Notes: a model not told the origin generated them from the letters alone. A stretch of 57,701 bases of DNA from an uncultured Gammaproteobacteria bacterium (GCA_963922815.1 CAWUKD010000004.1:1-57701); one strand, 5' to 3'; numbered from the stretch's first letter, positions 34,272 through 42,385 are shown. Numbers and translations are program-made.

Positions 34272-34829
34272 TCAAACGCAGTTCTGTGGTTCGCGGGCAA
34301 ACAATGCTCGCAGACGGTCTTCAAAATGAGCCAGTGGCCGGGTCGGGTAGTCCGGATCAAAAGACACCTGATCCCATTGGGCACAAAACGCCGCGCAGGC
34401 CTCATAATACGGATGATCCTTAAGCGCTTCCCGGGCGTTTCTGTCCATGTCGAAATGGTGAAACCAGTAGTAGCCCTGGAACAATCCATGGTGCAGCACA
34501 ATCCAGTAGCTCTTCTCGCTGACATAGGGGCGTAACAGGGCCGCCGCCGCCTGCGAATGGTTGTGGGGGCCGATCACGTCGCCGATATCGTGCAACAAGG
34601 CGCAGATCACCATTTCGTCACTGGCCCCGTCAGCTTCGGCTCGCGTTGCGGTTTGCAACGAATGCTCCAGCCGGCTGATCTGGTATGGCGAATCGCCGTC
34701 CATAGAGCGCATCCATTCAAGCACCCGGTCCGCCAGCTGGCTGGCGTTGTGAGCGTCGTGCCGGGAAACGAGCTCATAGTCCTCGCGCGTGCCGTGCTCC
34801 ATGGCCGTAAAATTAACTACTTTCGTCAT
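34272..34829 (-). CDS. HD-domain diiron oxygenase, TmpB/PhnZ-like
   Basis: Six-ligand set H(LEHS)-HD(LLHDIG)-H(HNH)-H(LHHG)-D(WDQ); ends SFDPDYPT. Confidence 0.8.
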   Translation of the reverse strand: MTKVVNFTAMEHGTREDYELVSRHDAHNASQLADRVLEWMRSMDGDSPYQISRLEHSLQTATRAEADGASDEMVICALLHDIGDVIGPHNHSQAAAALLRPYVSEKSYWIVLHHGLFQGYYWFHHFDMDRNAREALKDHPYYEACAAFCAQWDQVSFDPDYPTRPLAHFEDRLRALFAREPQNCV

Positions 34830-35926
34830 TCCGCCTTCTCCAGTTGACGCTTTAATACAGTCAGATGATTGCGCACACCGTCGTGCTCGAAATACGCATC
34901 CTGCAAATGGCGTCTTCCCGAAGGATCAAACCCGTTGCGAGCATGCAAGACCCGGTGTCCGGCGACCAGCAAACACTGTTCGCTTTCCAACCTGAAGACT
35001 ACTCGCGCCTGTTCGCTCATTAACCGCCTGCTGAGTTCGTGATAGGCCAAATAGAACGCCTCCAGCTTTGGTGTATTCGGGCTCAGGGTTTGCATCAGCT
35101 GATTCGAGTAGCGCAAATGAACTACGCCGCCGTCAGCGCCCACCCGAATAACCGGATTGACTGCAAAGGTTTCTTCCTGTTCATCAAACATCCTGAATGG
35201 CACCGACACCTGACATAGCACGTCGAACATATCCGGATGGTCGATTCTGAGCTGCTCGGCAATGGCCCATCCGTCTACAATAACTGTTTCGCCTCCTTCA
35301 CACTCGTTTACCAGCATATGTAGCCCCTGAACCGACGGAGGCCAGGACGAACTGGCAAAGTCATTGTGCGGCGGCAGAGGCAGCGACGTATGTGCCACGT
35401 TATAGCCGCCCGGATCCACCCGTACTTCATGTAACCGACCAAAGGGCATGTCGCGTATGCACCCAAGTCGCGGCTGCAAGCGCTCCAGCATGCCGCTCCT
35501 GCCCGGCATGTTAGTAATAACCAGCGCACCCAACGTAAGGAACTGCTCTATGGCGGAAGCCGCAACAACAGCTGTGTGCAGGAACTCGCCGAATTCGACC
35601 GTTGGCGGCGAAAACCCCTTGGTCCAGTGTTTGGTCTGAACTCCATCAAACCGTTCCAGCGTTCGAATATAGTCACCGTCAAAGCGGCTTTCGTGTCCGT
35701 CCGGCCACCGGATGACCAGCTCATCGTTTGAGAGCGCGGCACTGGCAGGACGCAGTTGCGCCGGAACGGAGGACAACATAAACCGCTTCTCATCCGTTTG
35801 CACAACGCGACACTCGGCGCACCGGCAATTGTCACGCAACCACAAGTGTGGCAGCTCACACTGTGTACTGTTGGCCCAGGTAACGCGGGTCACCGTGGTG
35901 CCTATGTCGACTGTTCCGGGCATCAT
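34826..35926 (-). CDS. Fe(II)/2-oxoglutarate dioxygenase, BBOX/TmpA-like (TauD family)
   Basis: GBBH-like N-domain WLRDNCRCAEC; HND...H(VLHAR) facial triad; RHLQDAY; ATGA overlap with the HD gene. Confidence 0.85.
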   Translation of the reverse strand: MMPGTVDIGTTVTRVTWANSTQCELPHLWLRDNCRCAECRVVQTDEKRFMLSSVPAQLRPASAALSNDELVIRWPDGHESRFDGDYIRTLERFDGVQTKHWTKGFSPPTVEFGEFLHTAVVAASAIEQFLTLGALVITNMPGRSGMLERLQPRLGCIRDMPFGRLHEVRVDPGGYNVAHTSLPLPPHNDFASSSWPPSVQGLHMLVNECEGGETVIVDGWAIAEQLRIDHPDMFDVLCQVSVPFRMFDEQEETFAVNPVIRVGADGGVVHLRYSNQLMQTLSPNTPKLEAFYLAYHELSRRLMSEQARVVFRLESEQCLLVAGHRVLHARNGFDPSGRRHLQDAYFEHDGVRNHLTVLKRQLEKAE

Positions 35927-36011: not shown

Positions 36012-38057
36012 CTACTTATCCTGAATCTTGCTATCGGACAGCGCAACCCGCTTTCTGCGGCGCCTGCGCGAACTCTCCTCGCTCACAGGAGGGGCCGCGC
36101 GTTTCGGCGGTCGCTCAACCGTGGAAAACAGCTTCGTGTAGGGGTCCGTCTTGTGCGGCACAGCCATCGCACTGACAAAGTACTCCTGAAACGCAGGTTC
36201 GATCGCAGTTTCGATCTTTTCTATACGCTTTACAACCTGTTCGATCGTGCGTCTGGAACCCCGGTTAAGTAACGCCTTCAGCGCGCCTAATCCTGCCGCG
36301 TTTCCGGCTGACGAAACATGGTTCAATTCGCAGTCAGGGATCAATCCAAGCACCATCGCGTGCTTCACATCAATGTGACTGCCAAACGCACCGGCCAGTC
36401 GCACGCGCTTCACATCGCGACTGCCATAGTGGTCCATTAGCAGACTGACTCCGGCATGAAGTGCGGCTTTGGCCAGCTGAATTTGGCGCACATCGTTCTG
36501 CGTAATCGTAAGCTTGATGTCACCTTCATGAAGAACATAGGACCAGGTTCTTTCGTCCGGCTCAATACGCGAGGACTGCTCTGCCAGTGTTCCGTTAATA
36601 ACTCCGTCTTCTGTAATCACACCGGCGAGAAACATCTCAGCGACCACTTCGATAATACCGGAACCACAAATCCCGGTTACTCCGATGCCCGCGATTGACT
36701 CTGCGAAACCCGGATCATCTGACCATAGCTTGCTGCCAATAACTCGAAACCGCGGCTCAAGTGTTTCAACATCGATTCGCACTCGTTCAACAGCACCTGG
36801 TGCCGCTCGTTGTCCGCAGCTGATTTGCGCGCCTTCGAAAGCAGGTCCGGTAGGGCTCGAGCAGGCCAGAAGGCGTGTCTTGTTGCCGAGGACAATTTCC
36901 GCGTTTGTACCAAGATCGATTAACAAGGTGAGTTCATCGCGGTTTTGAGGAGACTCACTCAAGACCACGGCGGCAGAGTCTGCGCCTACATGACCCGCAA
37001 TGCACGGCAGTACATAGACTCGTGCGCCCGAATGCACCGACAGGTCCAGCTCGCTGGCTTTCAGACTCAAGGCACCGTCTGTAGCAAGCGCAAACGGCGC
37101 GCCACCAAGCTCAACGGGATCGATACCCAGCACCAGATGATGCATGACCGGGTTACCCACCAGCGTCAGCTCCAGAATATCGTCAACCCCAATGGTGTCG
37201 TGCGGCTTCACGAGCGCATCGCACAGCTCGTTAAGGCCTTCACGAATAGCACCTGTCATTTGCGCTGCACCCTCCGGATGCATCATGACGTAAGACACGC
37301 GACTCATCAGGTCCTCTCCGAACCGGATCTGCGGATTCATTACGCCTTCGGAACCGATGATCTGCCCGGAAGTCAGATCCACAAGGTGTGCGGCGACCGT
37401 GGTCGAACCAATATCGACAGCCACGCCATAAACGGACTGCCTGAACCCAGGCCACACGGCCACGATCTGTGACGCGTCATACACCGCAACCGACACCTTC
37501 CATTCGCCTTCACGCAGCGCGCGCTGCAAACCGGGCAGCACAGATACGTCGCACTCCAGTGCGGACAGTCCCCACTCTTTTTCGAGCGCCTTGCACAGGC
37601 GCTGCAGATCACCGGAGGGATCATGCATGTCGGCTTCTTCAACACGGACGTAGTGCATACGCACAGCCGTATCCAGCTCAACTTCAAGATCACCGGCGGC
37701 CTTGCGTACGACCTGCCGATGCACCTGACTGCTGGCAGGCACATCAATTACCACGTCGCCTTCTATGCGCGCCTGACAGCCCAGCCGACGATCGCTCGCC
37801 AACTCCCGTTTTCCACGAGGACCATAGTGTTTCTCGCTATCCGCCACAGCCGACAAATGATCGACGCTTGACCGGATACCGTGCTTCGGAAACTCACCGT
37901 CAGTACACTGAACCTGACAGCGACCGCAAAGCGCACGTCCACCGCACACCGAATCAATATCGACACCCAGCGAACGCGCGGCATCGAGCACCGGAGTGCC
38001 GAGCGCGAAATCACCTCGCTTGCCACTGGGAGTGAATACGACGCGAGCAGTGCGCAT
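36012..38057 (-). CDS. ASKHA-domain ATP-dependent corrinoid reductive activator (RamA/RACo-like)
   Basis: N-terminal 2Fe-2S (CGGRALCGRC...RLGCQ); DIGSTT, DLGTNAE, SPTGPAFEG, AGAFGSH. Confidence 0.92.
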   Translation of the reverse strand: MRTARVVFTPSGKRGDFALGTPVLDAARSLGVDIDSVCGGRALCGRCQVQCTDGEFPKHGIRSSVDHLSAVADSEKHYGPRGKRELASDRRLGCQARIEGDVVIDVPASSQVHRQVVRKAAGDLEVELDTAVRMHYVRVEEADMHDPSGDLQRLCKALEKEWGLSALECDVSVLPGLQRALREGEWKVSVAVYDASQIVAVWPGFRQSVYGVAVDIGSTTVAAHLVDLTSGQIIGSEGVMNPQIRFGEDLMSRVSYVMMHPEGAAQMTGAIREGLNELCDALVKPHDTIGVDDILELTLVGNPVMHHLVLGIDPVELGGAPFALATDGALSLKASELDLSVHSGARVYVLPCIAGHVGADSAAVVLSESPQNRDELTLLIDLGTNAEIVLGNKTRLLACSSPTGPAFEGAQISCGQRAAPGAVERVRIDVETLEPRFRVIGSKLWSDDPGFAESIAGIGVTGICGSGIIEVVAEMFLAGVITEDGVINGTLAEQSSRIEPDERTWSYVLHEGDIKLTITQNDVRQIQLAKAALHAGVSLLMDHYGSRDVKRVRLAGAFGSHIDVKHAMVLGLIPDCELNHVSSAGNAAGLGALKALLNRGSRRTIEQVVKRIEKIETAIEPAFQEYFVSAMAVPHKTDPYTKLFSTVERPPKRAAPPVSEESSRRRRRKRVALSDSKIQDK

Positions 38058-38074
38058 AAGTACGGGTACCGGGG

Positions 38075-38968
38075 TTAGCTGGCGCGACGGCGACGGCGGT
38101 TTCTTCGTCCCGCCCCGTCAGCCGATGGCTGCCGGTATTTGCGAATCCAGTTGGCGCAATCCGGGTCGTTGCCCATCATCACGTCGGCGCCCAATACCGC
38201 CTGGATCACCTCTTCGTGCAAGGGACTGGTGATGGCCGAGGTCATCCCGGCCGAAATTGCCATGGTTAGAAAGGCACTATTGATACCGTTTCGGTTGGGC
38301 AGGCCAAAACTGACGTTCGACGCACCACAGGTTGTATTCACCTTGAGCTCTTCACGCAGTCGCCGCACAAGATGCATGACCTGCTTGCCGGAGCTGTTGA
38401 TCGCTCCAATGGGCATAACCAGCGGATCCACCACCACGTCGCTGCGAGAAATGCCGTGGTCGGCTGCTCGCTCAACGATCTTCTTCGCGACTTCGAATCT
38501 GACGTTGGGATCTTCTGAAATGCCGGTCTCGTCGTTGGAAATCGCCACTACCGCAGCTCCGCTCCTGGCCACCAGCGGGAGCACGGACTCCAGCACTTCG
38601 TCTTCGCCGGTAACCGAATTAACCAGCGCTTTGCCCTGATAAACGGACAAACCGCTTTCCAGCGCCGCAATGATGGATGAATCTATCGACAGTGGCACAT
38701 CGGTTATCGATTGGACCAGTTTGACGCACTCGGCCAATATGGCGGGCTCGTCCGCCAACGGGATGCCGGCGTTAACGTCCAGCATGTGGGCGCCAGCCGC
38801 CACCTGGGCAAGCGCATCGGCCTCTACCCGGCTGTAGTCACCGTTTTTCATTTCCTCCGCCAGAATTTTTCTTCCGGTCGGGTTAATGCGCTCGCCGATA
38901 ATGACGAACGGCTGATCAAAGCCAATTTTGACTTCGCGAGTTGCCGAGCTAATGGTAGTTATGGTCAT
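38075..38968 (-). CDS. Pterin-binding methyltetrahydrofolate:corrinoid methyltransferase
   Basis: IIGERINPTGRK, LDVNAG, LSIDSS, VNSV, VDPLVMP, GASNVSFGLP. Confidence 0.92.
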   Translation of the reverse strand: MTITTISSATREVKIGFDQPFVIIGERINPTGRKILAEEMKNGDYSRVEADALAQVAAGAHMLDVNAGIPLADEPAILAECVKLVQSITDVPLSIDSSIIAALESGLSVYQGKALVNSVTGEDEVLESVLPLVARSGAAVVAISNDETGISEDPNVRFEVAKKIVERAADHGISRSDVVVDPLVMPIGAINSSGKQVMHLVRRLREELKVNTTCGASNVSFGLPNRNGINSAFLTMAISAGMTSAITSPLHEEVIQAVLGADVMMGNDPDCANWIRKYRQPSADGAGRRNRRRRRAS

Positions 38969-39038
38969 CGATGTAATCTCCGTGGTTTTCAGGTCGGCAT
39001 CGCGTATTGCCAGCAGTATCAGAATTCACCGCGTGAAC

Positions 39039-39383
39039 TCACGTTTCATCCTCGACCGACGCGTCTTCAGGTTTGTCAGGCGAGTTACCCTTGTTTTTCA
39101 CCAGCGCCGTCAGCATCTGATCCGTGTAGGCCGCTTCTATCTCATCAGCGGCTCGCTGAGCAACAGTCTGATAATCTTCTTCGCCACGGTACACCTCACT
39201 CTCACGACGCCATTCCGCAATATAGGCGTCGCTGCCGCCCTTCCCTGCTCTCATTGCGGCCCTATCTATGGCGGCCTGAAAACGCGGACTGAGCATGACC
39301 TTACCGCTGGTGCGGCGTAATTTGACGATCACCTGAGACGGAATATCGCGCCAGTAAACGATGATTTTTTTGGGTGAAGGCAA
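39039..39383 (-). CDS. 'Virulence factor'-family small protein of corrinoid methyltransferase clusters
   Basis: VYWRDIPSQVIVK...RFQAAIDRAAM...AYIAEWRR; TTG start with GGGAG RBS. Confidence 0.75.
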   Translation of the reverse strand: MPSPKKIIVYWRDIPSQVIVKLRRTSGKVMLSPRFQAAIDRAAMRAGKGGSDAYIAEWRRESEVYRGEEDYQTVAQRAADEIEAAYTDQMLTALVKNKGNSPDKPEDASVEDET

Positions 39384-39385
39384 GG

Positions 39386-39988
39386 TCAGACTCCCACTAC
39401 GGCCTGCAGCTCGGGAAGCAGTTCACCGAACCCTGTCTCCACGCTGCAGTAGTCGAGCCTAAGATAATCTGCAATGTCGCGAGCTTTTTGTTCGAGCAAC
39501 GGACTGCGGGATTGCATCAGATACATAACCTTTTGGTAATTGCCAAAAAACTGCGGCAACAGCTCGGGATGAACATCAAGCTTCAATGAACGCACAACCA
39601 GCCGGTCAAAATGTCGCACAAGAAAATCGGTCAAATAGAACGTGGCCGGATCGGCATCATGGTATTGATCAAATTGTGACTGACCGGCGAACGTTGCGTA
39701 GCAATGGAGACCCGGAAGTCGCTCAAGGCCAAATTCAGTCAGCACCTTGTCGAGTTCGCCGTACGTACCGCAGTCGGCAAATGCAACGAATACTTTTTCA
39801 TAAGATCCGTTGGCATGAATCAATTTATCGCGCACCGCAGGCGCAATCCTGGTTGGCGTGAAATGCAGGTTCGCATCAATAGCCTCAATCTCGATATGCC
39901 GCCATTGATTCAGCGTTCTGATCTGATGAATCTCACGCGCTATCGCACCGCACGCGATGATCAGAATGGTTTTACCCGGCCGCGGCAC
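39386..39988 (-). CDS. DUF1638 domain protein
   Basis: IACGAIARE, ANLHFTP, FADCGT, HCYATF, FYLTDFL; probable GTG start at 39988 overlapping the corrinoid gene. Confidence 0.8.
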   Translation of the reverse strand: MPRPGKTILIIACGAIAREIHQIRTLNQWRHIEIEAIDANLHFTPTRIAPAVRDKLIHANGSYEKVFVAFADCGTYGELDKVLTEFGLERLPGLHCYATFAGQSQFDQYHDADPATFYLTDFLVRHFDRLVVRSLKLDVHPELLPQFFGNYQKVMYLMQSRSPLLEQKARDIADYLRLDYCSVETGFGELLPELQAVVGV

Positions 39989-40697
39989 GACGCTCTTCCA
40001 CCATTCGGGTCGCCATGTTGGCGGCCTCAGCCGCGTCCCGACAGTAACCGTCAGCCCCAACGGCGGTACCGAACTCTTCGTTCAGGGGCGCACCGCCTAC
40101 CAGAACAATGTAATCATCTCTTACGCCGCGAGCGACCATCTCATCGATAACGACTTTCATATAAGGCATGGTCGTGGTCAGCAGTGCCGACATACCGAGA
40201 ATGTCCGGCTGGTGCTCTTCAATGGCCGCGAAGTAATCCTCAACCGCGTTGTTAATGCCAATATCGATCACTTCAAAGCCGGCGCCCTCGAGCATCATGG
40301 CGACGAGATTCTTGCCAATATCGTGGATATCACCTTTCACCGTGCCAATGACCATCTTGCCAACGGGTTTGGCACCGGTTTCGGCCAGCAGAGGACGCAG
40401 AATCCCCATGCCGCCTTTCATGGCGTTGGCCGCGAGTAACACTTCGGGAACAAACAGGATGCCATCGCGAAAATCGATGCCGACGATTTTCATGCCGGCA
40501 ACCAGGGCTTCGTTCAAAACGCGCTCCGCGCTCCAACCGCGCTCCAGCAGGATTGACGTGCCCTGAACAATCTCCTCTTTGAGACCGTCGTACAGATCAT
40601 CGTGCATCTGTTCGACAAGTTCTTCGGTCGACAACGTCGTCAGATCCAGCTCTTCGTCGTCATCCTGGTCTTGTGATTGATCAGCGTGTTCGTTCAT
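39972..40697 (-). CDS. Corrinoid (B12-binding) methyl-carrier protein
   Basis: B12 cap plus GTVKGDIHDIGKNLV (DxHxxG), MSALLTTT, VGGAP. Confidence 0.95.
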   Translation of the reverse strand: MNEHADQSQDQDDDEELDLTTLSTEELVEQMHDDLYDGLKEEIVQGTSILLERGWSAERVLNEALVAGMKIVGIDFRDGILFVPEVLLAANAMKGGMGILRPLLAETGAKPVGKMVIGTVKGDIHDIGKNLVAMMLEGAGFEVIDIGINNAVEDYFAAIEEHQPDILGMSALLTTTMPYMKVVIDEMVARGVRDDYIVLVGGAPLNEEFGTAVGADGYCRDAAEAANMATRMVEERRAAAG

Positions 40698-40787
40698 CGT
40701 ACTCGTCCTCGTGTCGGGGCCGCACCTTCGTGCATCGTCGACACTAGCGTTACAGGGTGTGCAATGCCTATATTCATTTCACAGTTC

Positions 40788-42326
40788 TTAGTAATTCATA
40801 TCCGGAAACTCGGCCTTCCGGCGCGCCATATAATCCAGCAGCGCTTCATCCACCGCCGGATCCAGCTCAGGCGCCACATATTCGGCCAGCATCGATTTCC
40901 AAAGTGCGTTGGCTCGCTGGCTGGCATCCAGTTCGCCGTCCTCGGTCCACTGCTCGAAGCTGTTATTGTCCGCCATCGTCGAGCGGTAGAACGCATCCTC
41001 AAAATTGGCCTGCGTGTGTGCAGCGCCAAGATAATGAGCGCCCGGTCCGACTTCACGGATGGCATCCATGGCCTGACCATTTTCAGACAGGTCGACGCCC
41101 TTCAAAAGCACTGACATCATGGCGGCCTGGTCGGCATCCATGACGAATTTTTCGTAGCTCATCACCAGACCACCCTCCAGCCATCCTGCGGTATGCAGCA
41201 TGAAATTGACGCCCGCCAGTGCGGCCGTCTGCAGGGTGTTGGCGGCCTCATAGGCCGCCTGAGCATCGGGTAACTTGGAGGCACACAGACCGCCACCGCT
41301 GCGAAACGGTACGCCAAGTCGGCGCGCCAACTGGGCGGCTGCGTAAAGCACCAGGCTGGGTTCAGCCGTGCCGAAGGTTGGCGCGCCGGACTGCATGGAC
41401 ATGGCACTTGAAAACGTGCCAAACACCACAGGCGCGCCCGGTCGTACGAGCTGCACGTACGCCATGCCTGCCAGAGCTTCCGCGAGTATCTGTGTCAGTG
41501 TTCCTGCCACAGTAACCGGAGACATAGCCCCGGCGACGATAAACGGAGAGATAACAGTTGCCTGCATGTTTTCCGCGTAGACACGCGCCGACCCGAGCAT
41601 CAGGCTGTCATAGGACATCGGTGAATTGACGTTGATCAGGCTGGTCATCACGGTGTTGTTGCGGGCGAATTCATCACCGAACACCAGCTTGCACATGTCC
41701 ACGGAATCCTGCGCCCGGCTTTCGTGAGTGACCGAACCCATGAACGGTTTGTCGCTGTACTTGAGATGGCTGTACACCATATCGAAGTGCCGCTTGTTGA
41801 CGGGCAGTTCAACCGGCTCACAAACCGTGCCGCCGGAGTGATGCAGCCCCGGCGCCATGTAGGCAAGCTTGACGAAATTTTGAAAGTCTTCGAGCGTTGC
41901 GTAACGCCTGCCCTTGTCGAGATCCCGCACAAACGGCGACCCGTAAGCCGGAACCAGTACAGTGCGTTTACCGCCAATAACGGTCGATCGCGCCGGGTTG
42001 CGCGCATGCTGAGTAAACTCGGCGGGAGCCGAGGCCTGAATTAGTTGTCGACACAAACCCCGCGGAAAACGCACGCGCTCTCCATCGACATCAGCACCAG
42101 CGTTGCGCCACAACTCCAGCGCATCCGGCGTCTCCAGGAAGTTAATACCCACTTCTTCCAGCACCGTATCGGCGTTGTGCTCTATCGTTTCCAGCGCCTC
42201 GTCGGACAACATGTTGTAGTACGGTATGGCACGATCAATATACGAACTGATTTGCAGTTGATCTTCCTGCCGCGCCGCGCGTTTCGCCCGACGTCCGCCC
42301 GAGCGTCGCCCTCTTCGTGCTGTCAT
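40788..42326 (-). CDS. MttB-family non-pyrrolysine methyltransferase (MtgB-like)
   Basis: PAYGSPF, SGGTVCEP, INVNSP, PGAPVVFGTF, KLPDAQAAYEA, HTAGWLEGGL; no in-frame amber; likely ATG at 42326. Confidence 0.92.
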   Translation of the reverse strand: MTARRGRRSGGRRAKRAARQEDQLQISSYIDRAIPYYNMLSDEALETIEHNADTVLEEVGINFLETPDALELWRNAGADVDGERVRFPRGLCRQLIQASAPAEFTQHARNPARSTVIGGKRTVLVPAYGSPFVRDLDKGRRYATLEDFQNFVKLAYMAPGLHHSGGTVCEPVELPVNKRHFDMVYSHLKYSDKPFMGSVTHESRAQDSVDMCKLVFGDEFARNNTVMTSLINVNSPMSYDSLMLGSARVYAENMQATVISPFIVAGAMSPVTVAGTLTQILAEALAGMAYVQLVRPGAPVVFGTFSSAMSMQSGAPTFGTAEPSLVLYAAAQLARRLGVPFRSGGGLCASKLPDAQAAYEAANTLQTAALAGVNFMLHTAGWLEGGLVMSYEKFVMDADQAAMMSVLLKGVDLSENGQAMDAIREVGPGAHYLGAAHTQANFEDAFYRSTMADNNSFEQWTEDGELDASQRANALWKSMLAEYVAPELDPAVDEALLDYMARRKAEFPDMNY

Positions 42327-42385
42327 TGCTCTTCCCGTTGAACTTGCCAACCGCTTAGAAACACGTCTAAGTCTATGATTCATCG

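Follow-up and report, generated by a model that had tools for sequence, protein, structure and literature searches.

Arginine-rich tails and an acidic carrier head as a candidate docking system in a bacterial corrinoid methyl-transfer operon

How do four or five separate enzymes share one free cobalamin carrier without the linkers that hold MetH together? This question is raised by six genes at positions 36012-42326 (minus strand) of a 57,701-nucleotide stretch of DNA from an uncultured Gammaproteobacteria bacterium (GCA_963922815.1, CAWUKD010000004.1:1-57701), which we call the window. According to their Pfam domains, the genes are arranged in the order MtgB-MtgC-DUF1638-VirF-MtgD-RamA/RACo, and judging by this content the region is an aerobic-type MtgBCD/RamA/DUF1638 corrinoid methyl-transfer system. 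The enzymes that act on the corrinoid protein MtgC carry arginine-rich tails, and MtgC itself begins with an acidic head. From these sequences we consider it probable (roughly 0.6) that tails and head form a shared electrostatic docking tag, in which the Arg tails of the client enzymes bind the acidic head of MtgC. A tag and a head of this kind would explain the sharing of the carrier in a simple way. The proteins and segments concerned are the following.

40788-42326, minus strand: MttB-superfamily methyltransferase, non-pyrrolysine (MtgB-like), 512 aa (Pfam MTTB, E 1.9e-231; closest solved structure 4YYC, E 7e-224)
42270-42326, minus strand: Arg-rich N-terminal tag of MttB, MTARRGRRSGGRRAKRAAR, net charge +9, conserved in the 120 closest homologues
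39972-40697, minus strand: MtgC, stand-alone corrinoid (cobalamin-carrier) protein, 241 aa (Pfam B12-binding_2 and B12-binding)
40623-40697, minus strand: acidic N-terminal head of MtgC, MNEHADQSQDQDDDEELDLTTLSTE, residues 1-25, with 10 Asp/Glu and no Lys/Arg; the most acidic N-terminus in the genome
38075-38968, minus strand: MtgD, pterin-binding methyltetrahydrofolate (methyl-THF):corrinoid methyltransferase, 297 aa (Pfam Pterin_bind)
38075-38128, minus strand: C-terminal tail of MtgD, PSADGAGRRNRRRRRAS plus stop, net charge +6 (ending in GRRNRRRRRAS); its Arg cluster is found in related loci
36012-38057, minus strand: RACo/RamA-type reductive activase (2Fe-2S and ASKHA), 681 aa (Pfam Fer2, RACo_linker, Raco_middle, and RACo_C_ter; 3ZYY, E 1.6e-94)
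36012-36143, minus strand: C-terminal extension of RACo, 43 residues, beyond the end of the solved homologue 3ZYY

A preliminary description of the window had quoted five charged strings, all of which are found on the minus strand in the genes to which they were assigned, and had attributed poly-Arg termini to three docking enzymes. For MttB, MtgD, and RACo this stands. The Arg cluster of RACo (RRRRRKR within SSRRRRRKR, 36048-36068) is not at the very end of the protein but is followed by 12 residues (VALSDSKIQDK); most RACo homologues end at or just past the cluster, and the MtgD of Azoarcus has a comparable extension after its own. Two corrections are called for: the acidic VirF terminus drops out (see below), and the tailed partners of MtgC are four (MttB, MtgD, RACo, and MtgE), not three. 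The additional one is an MtgE-like homocysteine S-methyltransferase of 342 aa (S-methyl_trans, PF02574, E 5.7e-63), which supplies the MtgE module as a stand-alone protein on contig C37 (2921-3949) and bears a 46-residue C-terminal extension ending in KPTRGRRRRRSQPA (RGRRRRRSQPA). Its gene is unlinked to the operon and stands alone beside an ABC-transporter cluster.

Such termini are rare in this genome. When an Arg-rich C-terminus is defined as at least 6 Arg per 8-residue window within the last 25 residues, only 5 of the 3,116 complete open reading frames (ORFs) qualify, and three of these five are MtgD, RACo, and the unlinked MtgE (hypergeometric P of about 2e-9 for three MtgC partners among the top five); a further one is a poly(A)-polymerase-like protein. 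On the N-terminal side, MttB ranks within the genome's top five for Arg richness. On the side of the carrier, the strongly acidic N-terminus described for MtgC proved to be extreme, its first 30 residues being the most acidic of all 3,306 ORFs. MtgC as a whole has a net charge of -27 and an isoelectric point of 4.25. The clients are acidic too, with net charges of -5 to -15 overall and of -11 to -23 for their bodies without the tail. MetH, which this genome encodes as a fused protein of 1,231 aa on contig C197 with covalently linked modules, was checked as well and has no Arg tail.

The N-terminal position of the MttB tag depends on the start codon, and the start at 42326 is backed by the length of the 120 closest homologues (512-513 aa) and by an upstream purine-rich box (GGGAAGAG). 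The ORF can be extended by 19 codons to an ATG at 42383 (42327-42383), a choice that homologue lengths and the purine-rich box disfavor. MttB matches the PF06253 profile over positions 1-500, and its ORF is uninterrupted, with no in-frame TAG. A twin-arginine translocation (Tat) signal peptide at this N-terminus was considered and rejected: MTARRGRRSGGRRAKRAARQEDQLQISSYIDR contains no hydrophobic stretch.

The tails are conserved well beyond this genome. In a set of 80 related loci from Gamma-, Alpha-, and Betaproteobacteria, an Arg cluster closes the C-terminus of 36 of the 37 MtgD homologues and 38 of the 39 RACo homologues. An Arg tail was looked for in other proteins of the same loci and was found in none of the DUF1638 (0/29), VirF (0/28), or dimethylglycine dehydrogenase (DMGDH; 0/25) homologues; the remaining ORFs have one in 7% of cases. 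The MttB motif R-R-R-x-G-G-R-x-A-K-R-A-A-R-Q, which contains the start of the Pfam MTTB profile, is kept in 120 of the 120 closest homologues, and divergent MttB paralogues (34-58% identity) in tail-bearing genomes retain Arg-rich N-termini of a different sequence. MtgE homologues end in a basic C-terminal tail in 17 of 18 related genomes. For the carrier, the head pattern M-x-D-E-x-Y-D-D-E-E-I-x-L-x-x-L-x-D-E-E-L is conserved across 25-31 loci. All tails and the MtgC head co-occur across some 40 proteobacterial loci, and the same combination is present in the cultured Sinorhizobium meliloti, Azoarcus sp. KH32C, and Paracoccus methylovorus, where the operon-encoded MetF and MetF_C proteins have no tails.

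In this clade every client has a flexible linker ending in 5-8 arginines, placed N-terminally on MttB and C-terminally on MtgD, RACo, and MtgE, and the linkers preceding the Arg clusters differ in sequence and length. The MtgC proteins of the clade gained a poly-acidic N-terminal head of about 15-25 residues directly before the first cap helix. Arginine is strongly preferred over lysine: the MtgD tails together have an Arg:Lys ratio of 250:5, also in genomes with a GC content of 0.45-0.48. Because this preference persists even at such GC values, the tails are not an effect of composition.

Outside this clade, tails and head are missing together. The anaerobic corrinoid systems represented in the PDB (2QNE, 9YCE, 7XCN, 2YCI, 1F6Y, 3ZYY, 4C1N, 1Y80, and 4JGI), which we take to come from the Desulfitobacterium hafniense MtgBCA, the Methanosarcina MttBC/RamA, and the acetogen MeTr/CoFeSP/RACo systems, use the same folds and the same division of labor between a substrate methyltransferase, a corrinoid protein, a methyl-THF methyltransferase, and an ATP-dependent activase, but they have no Arg tag on MtgB or MttB. 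When these solved-structure homologues from anaerobes were compared, their sequences stopped where the extensions begin. PDB homologues of MtgD (MeTr type) end at query residue 280; the RACo structure 3ZYY ends about 8 residues past the last conserved motif; the corrinoid proteins begin 5-16 residues before the cap and have no acidic head; and the D. hafniense MtgB lacks the Arg tag, starting only at about query residue 30.

A finer boundary emerges from the MtgD family. In a search of 1.8 billion cluster representatives, Arg tails were confined to MtgD representatives with an identity of roughly 60% or higher. Among the full-length stand-alone proteins examined at 39-57% identity, none had an Arg cluster and most ended 0-13 residues past the conserved YR; three end in a mildly basic stretch of 19-23 residues. 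When the closest representative without a tail (57% identity) was used to seed a metagenome scan, this led to a sister clade whose operon holds MttB, MtgC, pterin methyltransferase, RACo, DUF1638, and MttB in equal order at a GC content of 0.61-0.71. Here the pterin methyltransferase, RACo, and MttB have no Arg termini, and the start of MtgC is shifted inward by about 25 residues, leaving no acidic head. The charge difference between the carriers is strikingly local: in the tailed clade the head carries -7.2 against 0 in the sister clade, whereas the cap (-9.4 vs -8.7) and the Rossmann domain (-7.0 vs -5.7) are similar. The extra negative charge of the MtgC proteins in the tailed clade resides essentially all in the head.

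Fused proteins add to this picture. Neither head nor tail is present in P0146, a natural fusion of MtgC and MtgD that shares 51% identity with the window's MtgC in the corresponding part. Separately, three apparent MtgD-RACo read-through fusions (P0126, P0149, and P0196) were observed, in which the Arg cluster has turned into an internal linker.

The preliminary description had linked the tails to aerobic life. Cultured aerobes have them and the PDB homologues from anaerobes do not, which bears that link out in part, but the feature tracks a clade. It is therefore best described as clade-specific rather than aerobe-specific, because the gene context of the sister-clade locus (L112) is not diagnostic for an aerobic or anaerobic lifestyle.

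Tails and head also vary together. In a set of 26 complete loci, MtgC heads richer in acidic residues go with MtgD and RACo tails richer in Arg (Spearman 0.70-0.76 between the two counts), and GC content does not account for this covariation. Phylogenetically independent contrasts on a concatenated tree give r = 0.43 and p = 0.025 (27 taxa including this locus, 26 contrasts). Charge-based docking had been suggested for this module from the sequence of the window, and the finding that tails and head are co-conserved, jointly absent, and covarying fits electrostatic docking on MtgC. The MtgC head is moreover predicted to be disordered: in an AlphaFold2 model of MtgC (mean predicted local distance difference test, pLDDT, of 86), residues 4-14 score below 50, and the chain is ordered from about residue 20, which is the start of the first cap helix.

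In short, the proposed mechanism is as follows. MtgC must be visited in turn by the MttB/MtgB-like methyltransferase, MtgD, the RACo/RamA-like activase, and MtgE. The Arg tail would act as a common address tag that binds the acidic head in a fuzzy, salt-sensitive manner, and the adjacent acidic cap helix would probably be contacted as well. Such pairing could offset the repulsion among proteins that are all acidic, and it could raise both the encounter rate and the local concentration. Since there is one head per MtgC and one kind of tag on all clients, binding would be mutually exclusive and quickly exchangeable, as suits a shuttle. The charged tails would in this way functionally replace the covalent linkers that join the equivalent modules in MetH. 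Both the tail-to-head contact and its importance for turnover are deduced here from sequence patterns.

Several points weigh against this proposal. All features may have been gained in a single evolutionary event, and their co-occurrence would therefore amount to few independent observations. The covariation is modest after phylogenetic correction and depends on the chosen MtgC start codons. The AlphaFold2 model of MttB is poor (mean pLDDT 55 from a 24-sequence alignment, N-terminus below 50) and uninformative on the N-terminus. In addition, Arg-rich and Gly-rich tails also bind RNA, polyphosphate, and acidic lipids, and the target of the tails could be the acidic body of the client itself.

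The docking proposal can also be taken further. In its strongest form, the Arg cluster would be a portable and sufficient address tag with the MtgC head as its receptor, and the pair would define the cobalamin-shuttle interactome. It would replace the MetH linkers and would have arisen when the modules separated in this clade; by binding the head and the first cap helix, a client's tail would help to pull the cap off the cobalamin, so that the cofactor would be exposed only while a client is docked. We regard this extended version as doubtful.

Among the alternatives, the one that survives best holds that the Arg/Gly-rich tails bind another polyanion, such as RNA or the nucleoid, polyphosphate, or acidic lipids near betaine transporters, and so co-localize the enzymes, the MtgC head serving a separate purpose such as repelling the polyanion or solubility. 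The tails do look like RGG or arginine-rich RNA-binding motifs (GGRxAKRAAR, GRGRREGGHRRR), their strong preference for Arg over Lys is typical for phosphate recognition, and the poly(A)-polymerase-like protein is one of the five most Arg-rich C-termini. Polyanion binding leaves unexplained, however, why precisely this clade is the one in which the carrier acquired an acidic head, why the acidity of that head tracks the number of Arg residues in the tails, why both features are lost in the fused MtgC-MtgD, and why MetF, DUF1638, and VirF of the same pathway are tail-less. We consider it unlikely.

Somewhat less probable still is an intramolecular role, in which the tails fold onto the client's own acidic body, for example onto the corrinoid-docking face, as a charge-neutralizing or auto-inhibitory plug. 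Every client body is acidic (-11 to -23 without the tail), and the flexible linkers are long enough for the tails to reach back; yet such a role gives no reason for the simultaneous appearance of the MtgC head or for the covariation, and the enzymes of the sister clade and of anaerobes, with similar folds, manage without tails. Both the polyanion and the intramolecular explanation account less well for the coupled gain of the head than docking does.

A complex coacervate or condensate driven by the opposite charges, which would concentrate the pathway and shield Co(I) from oxygen, had also been put forward in the preliminary description and is not indicated by the present analysis. Disordered segments of opposite charge are present, and client oligomers could supply some multivalency (the clients are presumably oligomeric, as are their homologues in solved structures). 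Condensates of this kind call for multivalent, long charged regions, but MtgC has just one short head, a client chain has just one short tail, and the charged runs are only 5-12 residues long. With a single head, MtgC caps a tail and does not bridge two, so the carrier cannot cross-link its partners. Because the carrier is monovalent, we judge a condensate to be very improbable.

Finally, the notion that the tails are neutral low-complexity ends arising from composition bias or slippage, for which a short CGCCGT repeat in the MtgD tail DNA might be cited, is effectively refuted by the conservation, GC, and codon evidence: the tails are kept across Gamma-, Alpha-, and Betaproteobacteria while the linkers vary, they persist at a GC content of 0.45 and are missing at 0.61-0.71 in the sister clade, the RACo cluster uses mixed codons, and the pattern is extremely rare genome-wide.

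Electrostatic docking on a shared carrier has functional parallels. The acyl carrier protein (ACP) is a small acidic carrier whose partner enzymes dock on it via basic patches, and the single-stranded DNA-binding protein (SSB) has an acidic C-terminal tail that is a hub for many partners. The corrinoid module would resemble both in that a small acidic shuttle or a disordered acidic tip is recognized by unrelated partners through basic residues, and, as in ACP- or SSB-like docking, the carrier and all its clients bear opposite charges that are conserved together. It differs in that the basic element on the clients is a portable, disordered, terminal Arg cluster instead of a surface patch, and that on the carrier side the acidity sits in an N-terminal head of a cobalamin carrier. 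The likeness is one of function, with no homology implied. The proposed tag, a portable disordered Arg cluster, has been acquired by each of four unrelated enzyme folds. MetH offers the other obvious comparison: its homocysteine-binding, pterin-binding, cap, and B12 modules are equivalent to the separate proteins considered here and likewise take turns at the cobalamin, but they are covalently linked.

The gene system itself is already known. The MtgB-MtgC-MtgD-RamA-DUF1638 system was characterized genetically in Phaeobacter inhibens (Price et al. 2018, PMC5764234) and Ruegeria pomeroyi (Mausz et al. 2025, PMC12478193), where it both demethylates glycine betaine and serves as a split methionine synthase. 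The window encodes the same protein set, with a stand-alone MtgE elsewhere in the genome and betaine-catabolism genes (DMGDH and folD) nearby. Neither of these two studies nor a 2025 MtgBCD preprint mentions the tails or the acidic head, and nothing relevant came out of a literature search on corrinoid systems with arginine-rich or polyarginine tails. Relative to the searchable literature, the tails and the head are thus the new element.

MtgC consists of a cap (PF02607) and a B12-binding domain (PF02310) with a DxHxxG motif, in which GDIHDIGKN is invariant across the alignment, and MtgD (PF00809) shares 62-64% identity with the ‘methyltetrahydrofolate cobalamin methyltransferase’ of S. meliloti and Paracoccus. 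Two further genes complete the operon.

39386-40060, minus strand: DUF1638 protein, start codon uncertain (Pfam DUF1638)
39039-39383, minus strand: PF13769 ‘virulence factor’ domain protein, VirF (Pfam)

As called, the DUF1638 ORF has a TTG start and overlaps the 3' end of MtgC by 89 bases. Its true start probably lies further downstream, because homologues align only from about residue 30. VirF ends in an acidic stretch (DKPEDASVEDET, 39042-39077), which had been counted among the complementary charges of the module. This stretch turned out to be unremarkable: it is specific to this genome, 29 homologues having C-termini that vary and are not acidic, and it was rejected as a part of the charged system. 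The VirF gene itself is present in 28-29 of the tail-bearing loci, and no match was found in the tail-less sister-clade loci (L112-L173); VirF may thus be another clade-specific component.

The surroundings of the operon show some variation on the known theme. In the operons of S. meliloti, Azoarcus KH32C, and Paracoccus methylovorus (L183, L184, and L185), MetF_C and MetF sit between VirF and MtgD, whereas the corresponding interval of the window (38968-39039) holds neither gene; methyl-THF oxidation must therefore be encoded elsewhere. The downstream neighbors are a GBBH-like dioxygenase, an HD protein, and DMGDH, and folD lies upstream. The first two (34272-35926) follow immediately 3' of the operon; the dioxygenase belongs to the TauD family and the HD-domain protein is MIOX-like, and their presence likewise sets the operon apart from the described MtgBCD systems. 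Because they adjoin the operon, the substrate of MttB or the input of the pathway may be something other than plain glycine betaine.

The wider interest of the system lies in its reach, as MtgBCD is one of the major routes by which glycine betaine is demethylated and, in many bacteria, methionine is made, both in the ocean and in soil (PMC12478193). If the Arg tails do dock on the MtgC head, they would provide a sequence signature with which further clients of the carrier could be found. Should the strongest form of the proposal hold, new clients would be predictable from their tails alone, and the tag and head might find a second use as a compact engineered tether. With docking of this kind, the corrinoid module would also be a clear bacterial example of disordered charged tails organizing a multi-enzyme shuttle.

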